DNA from: an uncultured virus (IMG/VR IMGVR_UViG_3300024999_000085)
Lineage: Duplodnaviria; Heunggongvirae; Uroviricota; Caudoviricetes
IMG/VR virus record: IMGVR_UViG_3300024999_000085
Direction: 5' to 3' (one strand)
Length of the DNA: 64,000 nt
Each line of letters begins with the position of its first letter. Position 1 is the stretch's first letter. Shown in pieces: positions 1 through 57,857 of the stretch. The notes below the pieces were generated by a model. It made no database searches. It was given only the letters and a program-made list of their open reading frames with translations, and had not been told where the DNA came from. The position numbers and the translations under genes are program-made.

Positions 1-105
1 CTTGACATTTCAATCCACATTCACCATTACACACCTGATTAGATTGCGTATAATAACAATATATTATATTATCGTCACAATAATTTTGTATTTCAAATCC
101 TTCCA

Positions 106-483
106 TTAGTTATTTTCCTCCTTTAATTCTAATTCATTCTCATTAACATCAACAATATTCCATTTATCACCTTTGCAAAATCCAACATATTCTTTATCCA
201 AATCATTATCAGTATAATAAATCTGAAATGACTTACCTGTGAAAATTAATTGATTCCCTTCTTGATCTTCGATAATAGCACCTTTAGGAATTAAATTTCT
301 ATCTACCATTCTCCATAATTCTGAATTATTATAATTTCTATCTAAAAATAATACTTCGTTTGGATAATGAAAATCTGAATCTTTTGGATTATCAAATTCA
401 ACAACTATCATATCAAAACCACTTTGTATTGTTTCTCCAATATATACACCAAATTTTTTGTGTTTTAATGAATAAACTTTCAT
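106..483 (-). CDS. hypothetical protein
   Basis: 125 aa ORF, AAGGAG RBS. Confidence 0.75.
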   Translation of the reverse strand: MKVYSLKHKKFGVYIGETIQSGFDMIVVEFDNPKDSDFHYPNEVLFLDRNYNNSELWRMVDRNLIPKGAIIEDQEGNQLIFTGKSFQIYYTDNDLDKEYVGFCKGDKWNIVDVNENELELKEENN

Positions 484-500
484 TAACTGATACTCCTTTT

Positions 501-1292
501 TTATTTATTATTCACTTCTAAATATTTTTCAATATAATTTCTGTCCTGAGTGAAAATAGGTATATCTTTATCTACTATCCATCTACTGCGTTCTGTACCA
601 TCTTTATCATAATATTCTTTAATAATACACGCACCACGTTTTTGATAAGTAGGATAATCATTAAAATTAATACCTTTTTGTTGGAATAACATCTCTTGAA
701 TCTGATTACAATTTATATTGTGTAATTGTTTGTGACTAAAATTAGCATGACCAACCATTTGAATAGCATTTCTAATTGCATCTTGTTGTCTCCAAATGAA
801 AGCATTGCATACTTCTTCTTTAGGTAAATTGAATACCCTAGAATCGAACATTGCTGTAAATATTTTATTTGTATATAGATTATTATATTCTTCCTTTGCT
901 TCTTTTGAAAATATGCTATCAATATTATTAATATAAAATTTATTAAATGCCAATGTTGCCATACTTGCAGATACAGAAACCATCTTTTGAATATTTTTAT
1001 CAAACCAAGATTGAGTAGTAATATTATCATAATCAGTAAGTAACAAAGATATTTCATCACTTTGTACGTATGCTATTTTACATCCCATAACATTTTCACA
1101 CAAATATTTTGCTGTTTCCCACATAGATTCCATTAATATCATATCAAATGGTTTTTGAAATCCTTTAGTAAATGTGTGGAAATTTTTACCGTCAATTCTA
1201 CAAATACAAGGTATTCTCCTAGTTAAATGTTTTCTTTCTACATTTTCATATTATTTCATTCTATTACCTAAATCATTTTTATTTTTCAACAC
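501..1292 (-). pseudogene. thg1: tRNA(His) guanylyltransferase Thg1-family, in-frame TAA at 1251-1253
   Basis: Frame extends upstream of ORF 501..1142: (V)LKNKNDLGNRMK*YENVERKHLTRRIPCICRIDGKNFHTFT...YVQSDEIS...FDSR...WRQQDA (Thg1 motifs); GAGGTG RBS before GTG at 1292. Confidence 0.85.
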
Positions 1293-2217
1293 TATTCACC
1301 TCATATAAATTATTTTTTATTAAATAATATTTAACTACATTTGGTTCAATATTATATATTTTTGCTATACTATAATATGTGTAACCTTGATTGTAATATT
1401 TTATAAATTCTTGCTCTTTATCTTTATAATTTCCTGGTTGTTTATTTTTATATTCTTTATATATCCATTTATATTTATATTCATCAAATGGACATTCTCC
1501 TATATAATTTAAAAATTCTTTTATTTTATGATGTGGAATATATATTATGTATTGATTATTTTTTTCAGTCTTTTTTAATTCTGCATTAAATATATTTAGT
1601 TGTGGTATTATAATACTATTTAATTCATTATATGTAAAACAATTAGTTGATAATTTTACATATTGACTATATTTTGAACAATTTAAACTTCCATCACCTA
1701 TATACCAAACTAAACAAGTTAATGGTGTTAATATCAAATAATTTGGTATTATTTTTATATTATTTTTATACCATATCTTTTTTAATTTTGTAAATGATAT
1801 ATTTAATTGTGTTCTTGCTGTATACCTAGTGTATACTTTATTAGTTCTTTTATCATAACATGAGTATTCTTTAATCCCTTCTTTTGTTGAATAATTGTTA
1901 AAATAATTATAAACATATTCTACATGATTTTTAATTTTTGAAGTATAAGAAAATTGAGAATTACCATGTTTTTGTTTTGTTAAATGACCATCTCCTAATA
2001 AAGCACCATTAATTACTTCTAATTGTATATCTGTTAATATTATTTCTTTATTTGTAAGCCATTCTTTTGGTTTCTTAGAACTAATATTATAATCTTTAAA
2101 ATTTCTTCTAATTGTATCTGTACTGCAATTTAATTGCTTTGCAATTGATTCTTGTGACATATTTTTATTAAAATACATATCTAACAATAATTCTTTATTT
2201 AAAATTATTTTATTTAT
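1279..2217 (-). CDS. free-standing LAGLIDADG homing endonuclease with terminal HTH-like segments
   Basis: INGALLGDGHL and WYIGDGSL motifs; probable ATA start at 2217, 7 nt after AAGGAGGTG (ORF track starts at 2187). Confidence 0.85.
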   Translation of the reverse strand: MNKIILNKELLLDMYFNKNMSQESIAKQLNCSTDTIRRNFKDYNISSKKPKEWLTNKEIILTDIQLEVINGALLGDGHLTKQKHGNSQFSYTSKIKNHVEYVYNYFNNYSTKEGIKEYSCYDKRTNKVYTRYTARTQLNISFTKLKKIWYKNNIKIIPNYLILTPLTCLVWYIGDGSLNCSKYSQYVKLSTNCFTYNELNSIIIPQLNIFNAELKKTEKNNQYIIYIPHHKIKEFLNYIGECPFDEYKYKWIYKEYKNKQPGNYKDKEQEFIKYYNQGYTYYSIAKIYNIEPNVVKYYLIKNNLYEVNSVEK

Positions 2218-2269
2218 AAAATAACACCTCCTTCATGCGATCTCCAAGAGAATCTTTACTATTATTCAT
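2210..2269 (-). pseudogene. thg1: orphan 5' fragment of thg1 (MNNSKDSLGDRMKEVLFYK*)
   Basis: AGGAGG RBS plus ATG; DSLGDRMK is the typical Thg1 N-terminus. Confidence 0.75.
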
Positions 2270-2596
2270 TATTATTTTCCTCCTCTAATACCCATTTTAA
2301 TATTAATTTTTGCTGTTCTAATCCATATATTCTAATATCTCTATTTTGAATATAATCACAATTTTTATTTATTCTTTCTCCTCTTTGTTTTTGATATTCC
2401 AAACATTCTATATTTCATTTTGCAGTTTTTTAATTTCATTATTAATATCACTTGCTTTATAAAGAATACTTAATTCATTTTTCATATATTATTCTCCTTT
2501 TCCAAATCATAACCAAACAAGAAATTTATCATGATTTTTCAATTTTTAAAATGCTGTAAACCCTTATAAATCAAGGGTTTGTGGGATCGTTAAAAA

Positions 2597-4701: not shown

Positions 4702-5622
4702 CTATTCTATCTTATATCTTACTATATGTAAATTATTATTTTTATATTCTTTTAAATCTTTTTTGAATTTATCAACTGCTAAATCTTTTCCTTTTGCCTC
4801 AATCATAACATCAAATTTATAATCTTCCGACAATTTCAAAAAATCCCTACAATAATTAAAATCAATCATATTTGCATGACTTCTAAACTCTTTATTTGAC
4901 TTAGGAGAACTTATATGAATTTTTGGTATTTTATCACCCCAAGTATCAAATATAGACTTTAAATCTAATTCTAAATCATCATTATTACAGTACATATGGT
5001 GTATATCAAGCACAATCTTCAATCCAGTATATTTATGTATCTCCATAACATCATTTATAGTATAACTTTTATCATCGTTTTCTAATACAATATGATTCCG
5101 TAATTGCTCTGGTAACTTATTAAATACTCTAATAAATCGCTTCATTGCTTCTGTTTTATCACCATACACACCACCTACATGAATGATTATATTAAAATCA
5201 TCATCATTTCCTAATCGCATAGAATTCAGTATATTGTAATGATAGATTAAATCCTTTACTGAAGACTTAACAACATCTTTATTAGGTGAATTTATATTAA
5301 CTATTTGTGAAGGATGCATACTACAACGTATCCCATTATCTTTACATAATTCACCTATACGTTTTAAATCATGTCTAATCCAAGACAAATAATCTATACC
5401 TTTAGATATTTCATGAGTAGCAAATGGAACAATGTCTGAACTTAATCTAAACATTTTAATATCATCAATAATACACTGTCTGATTGTTCTTTCTGTTTCT
5501 TTTATATTGTGCATTACAGTTTGATGTAATCTATTTTCACTAAAATTAGCAAGTCTAAATGTTTTATATTTAGTATTACACTTTAAAGACATACACGCAA
5601 ATCCAATATTACGAATTGACAT
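4702..5622 (-). CDS. uvsE: UV DNA damage repair endonuclease
   Basis: IGFAC, FRLSSD, SMHP, IHVGG, LENDD, DIHH, KIHISS, SHA and MIEAK motifs. Confidence 0.92.
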   Translation of the reverse strand: MSIRNIGFACMSLKCNTKYKTFRLANFSENRLHQTVMHNIKETERTIRQCIIDDIKMFRLSSDIVPFATHEISKGIDYLSWIRHDLKRIGELCKDNGIRCSMHPSQIVNINSPNKDVVKSSVKDLIYHYNILNSMRLGNDDDFNIIIHVGGVYGDKTEAMKRFIRVFNKLPEQLRNHIVLENDDKSYTINDVMEIHKYTGLKIVLDIHHMYCNNDDLELDLKSIFDTWGDKIPKIHISSPKSNKEFRSHANMIDFNYCRDFLKLSEDYKFDVMIEAKGKDLAVDKFKKDLKEYKNNNLHIVRYKIE

Positions 5623-23297: not shown

Positions 23298-24662
23298 CTA
23301 ACTGGCCTGTTCTTCTAATCCGTCAGTCTCAGGAATATCGTCAATGGTTAATTCTTCAACTTCAATACCATCATCCTGTGTACTATCTCCTGCAATTTCT
23401 TCGTTCTCAGATGCATCAGAAGTATCTAATAATGTCTCTGCATTATCTTCGCCCAAAACAGTATCATTTACCAATTCATTACCTAATTCTTTTGTCTCAT
23501 TTTCTGGATTGGTGTTTTCTGAAATATTAGCAGAATCGTCAGTGTTAGGAGTTTCATTCATAACTTCGTTAATAATACTTAAAACGTCATTATGTGTTAC
23601 TGGTTTTACTTCTTGTTGTTCTGTTTCAGTTTGTGCTTTAGTCTTAGGTGTTATCACCCATGCAAATGCATTATAATCATCATTGACTGCATTTAATCTC
23701 TTTTTCACACTCTCAACTTTTCCACTTGAACTTCTAGCAGCTTCATTGTAAATTTCGCTAATTGTAGCTGATTTAGTCCCTGCAAAAAACTTTCTAGTCC
23801 ATGCGGTGAACTTTTCTGTATTCCAAGTATCATTGGCAATTAACTTAGCCACTATAGGCATGATAGAAACTAAGTGAGTACGTGTAATCAATCTCTTAGC
23901 AACTTTGGCATCCTGTTTCTCACCTGTACCTGTTATTGCAGTATATGTTTCAAGAACTTTATCATACACTGTTGTTATTACTTCAGCCTGTTCTGGTGTT
24001 ATTTCAGCAGATTCAAGAATTGGCCTGATTTGCTTAGTTTCAAAACTTGGATTTTCACTATTCAGAATCACCCATGATTTAATAACAATATCTTCATTGG
24101 TGTATTTATTCATTGCCTTTTCGGTAAGTGCTGAATTAAATATTGAGTGTCTGCCAATTTCTTTGATGATTTCTATAGACTTGGCTTTAACTCTGGTTAA
24201 TTCAATCGAAGTAAGAGGTTTACCATTATTTAAACGGAAAAACATTTCATTTACTTCCTCATCTGTGATCCCGTCAAAATAGTAAATTGTTAAGGAATAA
24301 TCTTTAATTTCATCCTGTAATTCAATGGGAAGTTTTTCAAAAGTTAAACCATTAACATCCATAGTTTCATCAGATTCTAATGCAACTTCCGGCAAACCAA
24401 TCAATTCATACTGGTTATTTATGTATTTGCTAATTGCTTCTGATCTTTGTTTGCCATCAAGCATACTATAAATATTATCTTCTTTAGTTGCATAAAATGG
24501 CGGTATTGGATAACCTTCAATCATCGAATGAATCAAAAGTGATTTTCTTGATTGATCCCACACATAGCCACGTTGTACGGCGTTATCAAATTTAACTGTG
24601 CCTTTATCAATAGACTTAGTTAGTTGCTTTGCGCTCCAAGGAATATTAGCTTTCTTTAACAT
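23298..24662 (-). CDS. DUF262 (ParB/Srx-like, GmrS-type) domain protein with acidic tail
   Basis: VQRGYVW, LLIHSM...YPIP, LDGKQR, FFRLNNGKPL motifs. Confidence 0.85.
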   Translation of the reverse strand: MLKKANIPWSAKQLTKSIDKGTVKFDNAVQRGYVWDQSRKSLLIHSMIEGYPIPPFYATKEDNIYSMLDGKQRSEAISKYINNQYELIGLPEVALESDETMDVNGLTFEKLPIELQDEIKDYSLTIYYFDGITDEEVNEMFFRLNNGKPLTSIELTRVKAKSIEIIKEIGRHSIFNSALTEKAMNKYTNEDIVIKSWVILNSENPSFETKQIRPILESAEITPEQAEVITTVYDKVLETYTAITGTGEKQDAKVAKRLITRTHLVSIMPIVAKLIANDTWNTEKFTAWTRKFFAGTKSATISEIYNEAARSSSGKVESVKKRLNAVNDDYNAFAWVITPKTKAQTETEQQEVKPVTHNDVLSIINEVMNETPNTDDSANISENTNPENETKELGNELVNDTVLGEDNAETLLDTSDASENEEIAGDSTQDDGIEVEELTIDDIPETDGLEEQAS

Positions 24663-50447: not shown

Positions 50448-51281
50448 TTATACTGCCATTCCGTTTTTAAGTTGTCTCATACCGTCCGCTAAAATCCATA
50501 GAGCCTTATTTAGTTTAACATTATTATCTATACTTTTAACTTCTCTTGTCGTTGTTCTTGAACCATTTGCAGTTCTACCCCTCAAACCACCTCTTAATAA
50601 ATTTTCCTGTATGCGGTTAAAATTTGACCATACATCGGTATTTCTGTCTGCTATTCTTCTAGTGCCTAAAAGCTGATTTGGAGTGATAGGTGCTTCATTT
50701 TCATCATATTTCAGGCTTAAAGCTGCTGTAGCAAATATTTTCTGCTCGGCTGGTAATAACAGTGTAGACTTCATATTGTCAATGCTTTCGGTCACTGTTT
50801 CAAAGTCATCTACAATTGTATAGGCTGCATCAATAACATTGTGGATAATATTACCTTTGTGTCTTACTCTTATATCTTCTACAATATCCCCAGTGACCAT
50901 GCCATTTTGACATACAAACCGGAAACAACCTGCCATCATTTGGTAACTGCTTGTTCCGTCATGTGAATTGATAAGAATAATCTCGTTGGCTTCTGCCTTT
51001 TCGATTTCTCCTGTTTGGCGTAACCGTAACATATGCTTGGTGAATTCTGATTTACCTTCAATTCTACTTCTTGACTGTGCCACAAAAAACGGCTGAAAAC
51101 CTTCTTTTCTTAGGCCGTCTAATACGTCAATGGTCGGTATATAGGTATAACGGCTTGAGCGTGATTCGTGAGCCTCATTTGCGAATATACTTGGTGCTAT
51201 TCTGTAAAGTTGTGAATTATCCAAAGGTGCAGGAGACCTCAAAGCGTTACTATTCTTACCAAATCTTGTTGCTAATGCCAT
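50448..51281 (-). CDS. DUF932 (DUF945)-family protein
   Basis: APSIFA..AHESRSSRYTYIPT, KHMLRLR, NSHDGTSSYQM, FRFVCQNG, FNRIQENL, LNKALW. Confidence 0.9.
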   Translation of the reverse strand: MALATRFGKNSNALRSPAPLDNSQLYRIAPSIFANEAHESRSSRYTYIPTIDVLDGLRKEGFQPFFVAQSRSRIEGKSEFTKHMLRLRQTGEIEKAEANEIILINSHDGTSSYQMMAGCFRFVCQNGMVTGDIVEDIRVRHKGNIIHNVIDAAYTIVDDFETVTESIDNMKSTLLLPAEQKIFATAALSLKYDENEAPITPNQLLGTRRIADRNTDVWSNFNRIQENLLRGGLRGRTANGSRTTTREVKSIDNNVKLNKALWILADGMRQLKNGMAV

Positions 51282-56696: not shown

Positions 56697-57857
56697 TTAA
56701 TCTGTTATAATTTTTCTTATTTTGGAATACTCAATAAATTCAGTATAACCTTTTTCTGAGGCTATTTCAACTAAGTTATTCCAAGTTAATTTTAATGTAT
56801 CTTGTAAACTAATGGTAGGTATCAACTCAGTAAGTAAATGTGTAAATTGTAAAGATGCTTTGAAAGTTTCAATTTTTAACGTACCGCGAAAAATTCTAAT
56901 TTCTACAGTATCATCATTTTTTAAGTTAACGGCAAAATATCGGCCCTCAGCCTTAGCCTTTTTACAGATCTCAGCAGGTTCTTCCTCTGTTGATAAATTG
57001 TTATAACGGTTACAATATTCTACAATTTGACTATTTTTTCTTCTGGAAAACTTTTTAATGTTATCCCAATTAGTCTCAAAAAATAATAATAGTTTAGCAA
57101 TATTTAAATCCTGCTCATGTTCTGATTTGCCAAAAGCTAACTTGCTAATGTGTATATGCATCCCACAAGTGCCTAAGTCATGGCTAGAATAGCCTTTTGT
57201 ATCGCATTCATCCAATATATATTGCCATCCCATATTTTTCATATGGTAAGAATATGTACAAGGATGACTAACTAATTCCATACCGCGCTTAATTGAACCA
57301 TCTTTTTTAATGTAAAGGTATTTTTCATACTCGGTAAGGTCAGTCCCGTTGGCTTGATCATGAATTTCTAAAGCATGATCTTCCTTAGATTCATAACAAT
57401 CACGTTCCTGTTCTTCTGTTCTGTCAATTTCTAACTCTATTCCATAATATGTATTTGTTACTTCATTAGTCATAGAATGGAAATTTAAGGTTTCTGGTGT
57501 ATATTTATAGTCGTGAATAAAGGTTAGATTATTTTTAATGTCATTTTGACAACTACAACAAACTGGTTCATTCTGCCATATTTCAGTGTTATCACGTTCT
57601 ACAATATTTTCGCATTCGGAACAAATTATTAAATCTAATTCCTCAATGCAGTTATGACAAGCATAATTATTATGTCCTTCTGTTATATTACTTTCGTGAT
57701 ACTCAGTATTACAAAAACTACAAGTTTTAATTTCCTGTGCGCACTCATCGCAATAATATTCATCCTCTGTAAAATTTCCATCTCGTTGGTACATATTGTC
57801 AGATATATCAGTAAAACCACAATGGAAACAACTTACTAATTCTTCCTGTTCTGGCAT
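56697..57857 (-). CDS. putative amidoligase (COOH-NH2 ligase) with N-terminal CxxC repeats
   Basis: YGIELEI, KDGSI..GMELVSHP, TCGMHIHIS, RYFAVN, TVEIRIFRGT. Confidence 0.85.
   Translation of the reverse strand: MPEQEELVSCFHCGFTDISDNMYQRDGNFTEDEYYCDECAQEIKTCSFCNTEYHESNITEGHNNYACHNCIEELDLIICSECENIVERDNTEIWQNEPVCCSCQNDIKNNLTFIHDYKYTPETLNFHSMTNEVTNTYYGIELEIDRTEEQERDCYESKEDHALEIHDQANGTDLTEYEKYLYIKKDGSIKRGMELVSHPCTYSYHMKNMGWQYILDECDTKGYSSHDLGTCGMHIHISKLAFGKSEHEQDLNIAKLLLFFETNWDNIKKFSRRKNSQIVEYCNRYNNLSTEEEPAEICKKAKAEGRYFAVNLKNDDTVEIRIFRGTLKIETFKASLQFTHLLTELIPTISLQDTLKLTWNNLVEIASEKGYTEFIEYSKIRKIITD

Follow-up and report, generated by a model that had tools for sequence, protein, structure and literature searches.

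Near one end of the window, a 64,000-nucleotide stretch of DNA from an uncultured virus of the Caudoviricetes (IMG/VR record IMGVR_UViG_3300024999_000085), a gene for a Thg1-like protein on the minus strand is parted from its native 5′ end by a free-standing LAGLIDADG endonuclease gene and begins anew from a replacement start that overlaps the end of the nuclease frame (Table 1). The native ATG at 2269 opens a frame encoding MNNSKDSLGDRMKE followed by five foreign codons (VLFYK), and the stub frame stops at 2212-2210. The stub itself is identical to the N-terminus of proteins from an uninterrupted, empty allele (P0123 and P0124). At the junction stub and insert together form the nonamer AAGGAGGTG, whose position is given by the sequence and the junction and whose role as the Shine-Dalgarno sequence (SD) of the nuclease is presumptive. 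The replacement thg1 start is either GTG (1292) or TTG (1289) and gives KNKNDLGNRMK before reaching a TAA, the frame being the same as that of the 249-codon Thg1 body (Pfam Thg1 match), which ends at 501 and has BtTLP as its closest structure (4kgk, E 4e-84). This layout agrees with the earlier note on this DNA, which from the letters alone had described a Thg1 N-terminus with its own ribosome binding site halted at the endonuclease gene, a nuclease SD formed by three codons, a second, likewise equipped N-terminus lying over the nuclease 3′ end in frame with the thg1 body, and an insert without space for an intron.

Table 1. Features of the thg1 locus and accessory genes of the same array, in positions of the whole window
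Feature	Position	Strand	Details
SD of native thg1 start	2279..2286	-	AGAGGAGG, 9 nt 5′ of ATG
Native thg1 5′ stub	2229..2269	-	MNNSKDSLGDRMK plus two bases of codon 14
Probable hybrid SD of nuclease	2225..2233	-	AAGGAGGTG; stub gives first 5 nt, insert last 4
Insert without counterpart in empty allele	1252..2228	-	977 nt; one base of ambiguity
LAGLIDADG endonuclease, free-standing, two-motif	1279..2217	-	312 aa from probable ATA
SD of replacement thg1 start	1297..1302	-	GAGGTG, within nuclease 3′ end
Replacement thg1 5′ end	1182..1292	-	about 37 codons, through catalytic R-I-D-G
TAA codon	1251..1253	-	GAA (Glu) in other assemblies
thg1 (Thg1-like protein) body	501..1181	-	common to empty allele; identical to P0123
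UvdE UV endonuclease gene	4702-5622		same array
GmrSD N-terminal domain gene	23298-24662		same array
DUF932 gene	50448-51281		same array
Amidoligase gene	56697-57857		same array

The window has 27% GC, and its genes form an array that lies almost wholly on one strand and includes accessory genes of phage type; no tRNA was found in it, and no structural gene among the 40 ORFs scanned. The named Thg1 homologs of its protein belong to Clostridium and Tissierella, and we infer that the source is a large Firmicutes phage or prophage. A promoter scan returned 20 sites against 26.0 expected, the same scan found no terminator, and neither of the two starts lies in an SD-hiding hairpin (z 0.70 and 0.40).

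The nuclease frame matches LAGLIDADG_2 (PF03161; E 4e-23, 82.6 bits against a cut-off of 25) and PHROG 11023, has an HTH at each end and fits an I-SceI-like profile (E 5e-13), while its catalytic LAGLIDADG aspartates D76 and D175 are invariant in 28 of 28 aligned homologs. It thus holds a homing-nuclease domain with intact catalytic residues, and with a frame and stop of its own it lies outside any intron or intein. The expected start has no ATG, GTG or TTG; an ATA at 2217 aligns with the Met of the homologs and is unchanged in the contigs of two further samples (X1 and X3) over 1996-2307. Several relatives likewise have no ATG at the homologs' Met, reading ATT (L050, L053), ATC (L030) or TTG (L036), and the ATH starts among them (L050, L053 and L030) each stand a few bases 3′ of an SD at the stub junction. 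By analogy with these non-ATG starts behind junction SDs, the ATA of the window is probably a real, weak nuclease start. Used as a single query the nuclease of the window had no match in viral contigs or in 50,697 phage records, and relatives had to be reached with an alignment as the query.

The uninterrupted counterpart of the locus is present in close relatives. Four of ten runs (X1, X3, X5 and X6) were compared as assembled contigs, in which rare variants are lost; X1 and X3, two samples from a single study, may contain the source of the window itself. One contig in X1 (depth 62.1) and one in X3 (depth 24.4) join 1251 to 2229, skipping the entire insert, and as proteins the empty allele is represented by P0123, P0124, P0247, P0248 and P0250. 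P0123 carries the stub N-terminus on the thg1 body of the window. Relative to it the cassette allele has other first residues and the changes T27I, L31C, L33I and S37N, and is identical afterwards. Since the differences end at S37N, the replaced tract spans, on this comparison of alleles, about 37 codons and brackets the catalytic R-x-D-G; the replacement of the 5′ end that the earlier note proposed is thus present, and it reaches to about 1182 rather than merely to 1254, which would have been 12 codons. A second thg1 body, 86% identical to the first, occurs both empty (P0124, P0247, P0248 and P0250) and with the same replacement start (P0249), although two of the four combinations of body and cassette (P0123 and P0249) come from one contig each and could be chimeric assemblies. 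Upstream, between 2580 and 3010, the X1 and X3 contigs and L049, a locus that equals window positions 1-2580 at all but one base, diverge from the window, marking a variable slot among co-occurring strains that in the window holds a 132-aa ORF without Pfam or PHROG match.

Removal of 1252-2228 restores the frame of the empty allele, which is also what would be seen if the insert were a cryptic self-splicing intron and stub and body were spliced to give DRMKEYEN. We regard splicing as extremely improbable, since coding frames fill the insert end to end and leave no non-coding space for a ribozyme core flanking the nuclease ORF. An Rfam scan of 300-2700 gave no intron match (one chance snoRNA match, E 0.74), nor was there an intron match in any of the 16 related loci tested. 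Moreover, the second thg1 start has an SD of its own, intact in all of the relatives with a recoded motif described below, and the stubs, at lengths between a few and some 30 codons, do not share one end point as a splice site would.

The replacement frame of the window is closed by the TAA, whose standing differs between assemblies. In X1 and X3 the base at 1253 is changed from A to C at full depth (109.3 of 109.3 and 53.3 of 53.3), turning the codon into GAA (Glu). X5 has no cover at 1253; X6, which holds only 0.13 of the words, has a depth of 29.2 there without the C variant and with no listed piece spanning the site, a signal that may stem from unrelated sequence or may support the TAA. 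Full-length cassette alleles with Glu are on record as P0244 (10 contigs) and P0246 (3 contigs), and P0249 carries the Glu too. The TAA is shared by L049, and among the fetched loci these two are the only ones with a stop at this codon. The stop that the earlier note saw at the junction is therefore a property of the window and L049, with a sense codon at full depth in X1 and X3, and it probably reflects a rare nonsense allele, or else an error that two assemblies have in common; on either view it is a minority state. The change itself is probably an incidental point change from GAA to TAA.

Readthrough or bypass at this TAA had also been suggested. The presence of the stop in two assemblies, the intact thg1 body 3′ of it and the truncated Thg1 calls P0243 (213 aa, 3 contigs) and P0245 (210 aa, 7 contigs) are compatible with a programmed site, although the 210-aa calls may be contig-edge truncations. 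GAA is the only reading in X1 and X3, full-length Glu alleles exist, no further fetched locus has a stop here, and the site offers neither a matching codon for a hop nor a stable fold (z 0.40), which together make programmed readthrough or bypass very improbable. The products of the TAA allele have no equivalents of BtTLP E12, R28 and D30, residues tied to activity, GTP binding and metal binding in the available text of the BtTLP 4kgk paper, and on this ground the thg1 copy of the window, as it stands with its TAA, is most likely null. By comparison with BtTLP the Glu allele P0244 holds R-x-D-G and the SDE carboxylates in one chain, and the TAA allele does not.

The association of this nuclease with thg1 extends across its clade. 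An alignment of 28 nuclease homologs led to 73 loci, of which several are the same or near-identical contigs. A nuclease of at least 42% identity is present in 55 of them, seven of which end inside the nuclease, and thg1 lies directly downstream in 47 of the 48 informative loci, the exception being L071; the 18 more distant nucleases have no thg1 match. L071 (1950-3010) has the look of a broken cassette: behind its stub and truncated nuclease come part of another gene and a transposase-like ORF, and thg1 is missing. In many linked loci the upstream stub matches the empty thg1 starts of related phages (L030 with L127, L033 with L172). By eye, stubs end between a few codons into the gene and the R-L before D-G (about 30 codons), never past it, and about 12 loci are stubless. 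In L061 the stub closes, at about 217-310, with a short duplication of P-V-I-I-R-L and then TAG, exactly at the position between L and D.

The clearest trace of movement is found in eight L036-type loci, in which identity is 100% across 122 nt of the replacement start and 97.9% in the nuclease, whereas it is 86.8% in the stub, 61% in the upstream DNA and 82% and then 74% in the thg1 body, divergence resuming a few bases 3′ of the D-G codons. We read this pattern, with 98-100% identity between flanks of 61-87%, as the footprint of recent homing with co-conversion, its 3′ boundary lying just past the motif. Support for lateral spread of the window's own cassette is weaker than for the L036 group. 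A nuclease tree was drawn from 27 hand-chosen rows, with L073 mistranslated owing to a frameshift; its base does not resolve, and origins cannot be counted from it. Taken with the empty allele and the clade-wide link of the nuclease to the thg1 5′ end, this identity between divergent flanks bears out the earlier proposal of intronless homing with N-terminal replacement, as does the comparison of loci with and without the endonuclease, in which P0123 and P0124 appear as the stub N-terminus joined directly to a body. It is thus very likely that the locus is a free-standing LAGLIDADG homing cassette, composed of a nuclease and a replacement thg1 5′ end, of large Firmicutes-type phages. A second nuclease family may perhaps act on the same target: in L008 and L009 (2225-2950) an HNH gene (Pfam HNH_2, E 1e-4) lies directly 5′ of thg1, and the thg1 motif region of both, K-C-F-S-S-F, resembles that of the nuclease-linked L073.

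The likely mechanism can be outlined from this anatomy. During mixed infection the nuclease would cut an empty thg1 at or near the R-x-D-G codons, and repair would copy the cassette, guided by homology to the thg1 body downstream and to the recipient's 5′ end upstream. That 5′ end would stay behind as the stub, lending SD bases and a coupled stop to the weak ATA start, so that nuclease output would probably be low. The replacement 5′ end would bring an altered target and restore a full Thg1 from the new start. In the window 11 codons with four substitutions would make up the alteration, and in relatives it would be a change of D-G to D-M, a +1 insert at CTT-TGA or CTT-CGA, or CTT-stop-CTN, the last two of which would need ribosomal frameshifting or hopping. 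Since the motif of the window is the plain R-I-D-G, its putative resistance would rest on the flanking substitutions.

A target at the insertion point itself, the N-terminal DRMK-YEN codons, had been proposed earlier; the comparative data favour the R-x-D-G codons some 55-70 nt further downstream. The stub does end at or near RMK in the window, L050, L073, L033 and L067, and the subclade of the window has a plain motif. Specificity can also shift between related LAGLIDADG enzymes. Yet stubs of about 30 codons retain an intact DRMK-YE right beside the nuclease (L034, the L036 group, L066 and L086), R-x-D-G lies within the replaced tract of the window, and the tract of the L036 group ends just 3′ of the motif, leaving the DRMK-YEN target distinctly unlikely.

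Of the 46 nuclease-linked thg1 loci with the motif in view, 37 have it in altered form. A +1 insert between L and D (CTT-TGA or CTT-CGA) is present in 15, CTT-stop-CTN in two (both CTT-stop-CTA) and D-M for D-G in 20, while eight, including L049, are plain and L079 is ambiguous. Candidates for recoding thus make up 17 of the 46, and the rows of the set are redundant, by eye amounting to about five cassettes of the +1 type, two of the hop type and four or five of the D-M type. The D-M change, in which Met takes the place of a near-invariant Gly after the catalytic Asp, is seen in the groups of L030, L040, L044, L054 and L066 and in one unlinked locus (L166). The window, with its plain motif and no recoding insert, stands with the eight, and it is a plain member of a thg1-homing cassette family whose candidate recoding signals sit in other members. 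In control sets the motif is rarely altered: it is plain in all 28 loci found with the Thg1 of the window that lack this nuclease, L008 and L009 with their HNH gene included. A body-only profile matched at least 575 viral thg1 loci, and among the best 80 of these the 79 nuclease-free ones comprise 78 plain, one D-M and none recoded, the single nuclease-bearing locus being the L033 contig.

Pattern scans of viral contigs that left the take-off and landing codons free returned six stop-type and eight +1-type contigs, with the nuclease upstream in nine of the 14; L110 keeps a remnant of the nuclease tail, and L103, L104 and L106 show no nuclease. L113, compared with L035 (1848-3004), has lost the nuclease by a clean deletion, bounded by short purine-rich sequences that resemble each other, and keeps the +1 allele with its SD. 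L103, L104 and L106, from GC-richer phages, have a perfect CTT-TAG-CTT stop-hop candidate near 1801 and no nuclease within 1.8 kb upstream. Two further hits (L105 and L107) were chance pattern matches without thg1. In phage BCP12 (L117, about 1670) an unannotated thg1, with no nuclease, has a frameshift far 3′ of the motif and so stays outside the recoding set; it is likely a sequencing error or pseudogene.

The +1 and stop inserts could be plain knock-outs, the nuclease spreading dead copies of a dispensable gene. That thg1 is accessory and that the window's own copy appears null would fit such a reading. At 12 shift sites inspected by eye there is no RF2-like internal SD on the 5′ side, behind the shift sites there is no consistent structure (one of four folds was notable), and intact bodies are to be expected from recent homing alone. 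The sequence around the inserts is harder to reconcile with loss of function. The take-off codon is CTT at 8 of 8 +1 sites and 6 of 6 stop sites, against a background of 8 of 65 distinct plain alleles, the landing codon is CTN at 6 of 6 stop-type sites, and 7 of the 8 viral +1 sites are CTT-TGA, a CUU_U shift site with a stop in the A site, the remaining one being CTT-CGA. The recoded 5′ segments are open for 31-34 codons from the start codon in 10 of 10 checked, even though they share a mean of 51% identity over their last 16 residues, and 13 of the 14 bodies checked are open to the end, L034 showing a late frame shift. The identity of the stop also appears to follow the code of the phage. 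The nuclease genes of L046 and L109 contain seven and eight in-frame TAG codons, some of them where the alignment has a conserved Gln, and the coding cover of both loci rises when TAG is read as Gln; in-frame TAG, several at conserved Gln columns, was observed in the nuclease of L034, L046, L072, L086 (by eye only) and L109, phages that probably read TAG as Gln. The hop stop is TAA in L046 and L109 and TAG in L033 and in L103, L104 and L106, which apparently use the standard code. On balance we hold the knock-out reading to be fairly unlikely.

Functional recoding accounts for these features more readily, and the +1 inserts of the relatives probably work as such. For the stop inserts the choice of hopping over readthrough is close to an even one: a hop would restore R-L-D-G exactly, and readthrough would shift the GTP-binding Arg two residues further from the Asp. 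With similarly balanced confidence we suggest that the catalytic codons of thg1 are the homing target of the clade and that its means of self-protection include a 1-nt insert offset by RF2-like +1 frameshifting and a 6-nt insert offset by a natural in-frame stop-hop, with a stop that tracks the genetic code of the phage.

In this family a single target occurs in four putative states of escape (substitution, a DG-to-DM change, a +1 insert and a stop insert), together with empty alleles and derivatives that have lost the nuclease, making the origin of programmed recoding directly testable. The family also shows the catalytic N-terminus of a reverse polymerase being reshuffled by homing. For annotation the consequence is that gene callers shorten both genes, owing to the non-ATG starts of the nuclease and the recoding of thg1. 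Of two reviews on intronless homing (PMC2988022 and PMC10448857), the available portion of the latter holds nothing on a thg1-type replacement, and pyrrolysine in archaeal Thg1 (PMC8211752) is a different matter. The literature searched, mostly the main text of open-access papers, contained no thg1-linked homing endonuclease and no recoding of a phage thg1, and the thg1-homing cassette family is apparently undescribed.

Known systems share parts of this arrangement. The seg and mob genes of T-even phages have in common with the thg1 nuclease the absence of an intron and of a promoter, an overlap with the upstream ORF, a cut site away from the insertion and co-conversion of flanks, and differ in encoding GIY-YIG or HNH enzymes, in being mostly intergenic and in starting with AUG or GUG (PMC2988022). 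The thg1 nuclease, in contrast, sits inside the 5′ end of its target, duplicates that end and probably starts with ATA. Duplicated host-gene ends also accompany the mobile inserts of Allomyces atp6 and Ophiostoma rps3. The nuclease-linked inserts in the fungal mitochondria of Tremella (PMC7315562) and Endoconidiophora (PMC6279837) carry a foreign version of a host gene end that takes the place of part of the gene, as here; these differ in being mitochondrial, in involving introns or C-terminal duplications and in affecting other genes, and the available text of the two papers describes no recoding signal.

The candidate shift sites can be set beside the RF2 +1 site and synthetic stop-hops (PMC5009743). 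CUU_U was by far the most efficient +1 site tested there, and the relatives share with these systems a CUU_U before the stop, usually with C next; with the synthetic stop-hops they further share matched codons flanking the stop and the reading of 9 nt as one residue (PMC5009743). That 2016 review, in its available text, knew of no natural in-frame stop-hop, so that the stop-type sites, if they hop, would possibly be the first (PMC5009743). Compared with RF2, the relatives have by eye no stimulatory internal SD, and they have no autoregulatory role.

The T4 mobA/gene 60 cassette, reportedly the subject of work by Bonocora in 2011, resembles the thg1 cassette in pairing a free-standing nuclease with a modified segment of its target gene that moves along with it (bioRxiv 10.1101/2022.08.31.505936). 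MobA is an HNH nickase in a topoisomerase gene, whereas a LAGLIDADG enzyme resides in thg1, and the T4 host gene is divided into two functional ORFs that have gained tails, whereas in the thg1 cassette the old 5′ end gives way to an entirely new one, a stub is left and full-length Thg1 is encoded behind the nuclease. In T4 a recoding insert of 50 nt blocks self-cleavage and leaves the protein unchanged; the candidate counterparts in the thg1 relatives measure 1 or 6 nt, and the window has none. The T4 insert also persists after loss of the nuclease, as the +1 allele does in L113. The gene 60 bypass cassette is called unique in the available part of the same preprint (bioRxiv 10.1101/2022.08.31.505936). 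By analogy with it, the +1 and stop inserts look like target-protecting recoding, and if they are, the thg1 cassettes would provide a second, minimal example of recoding born from escape from a homing nuclease.
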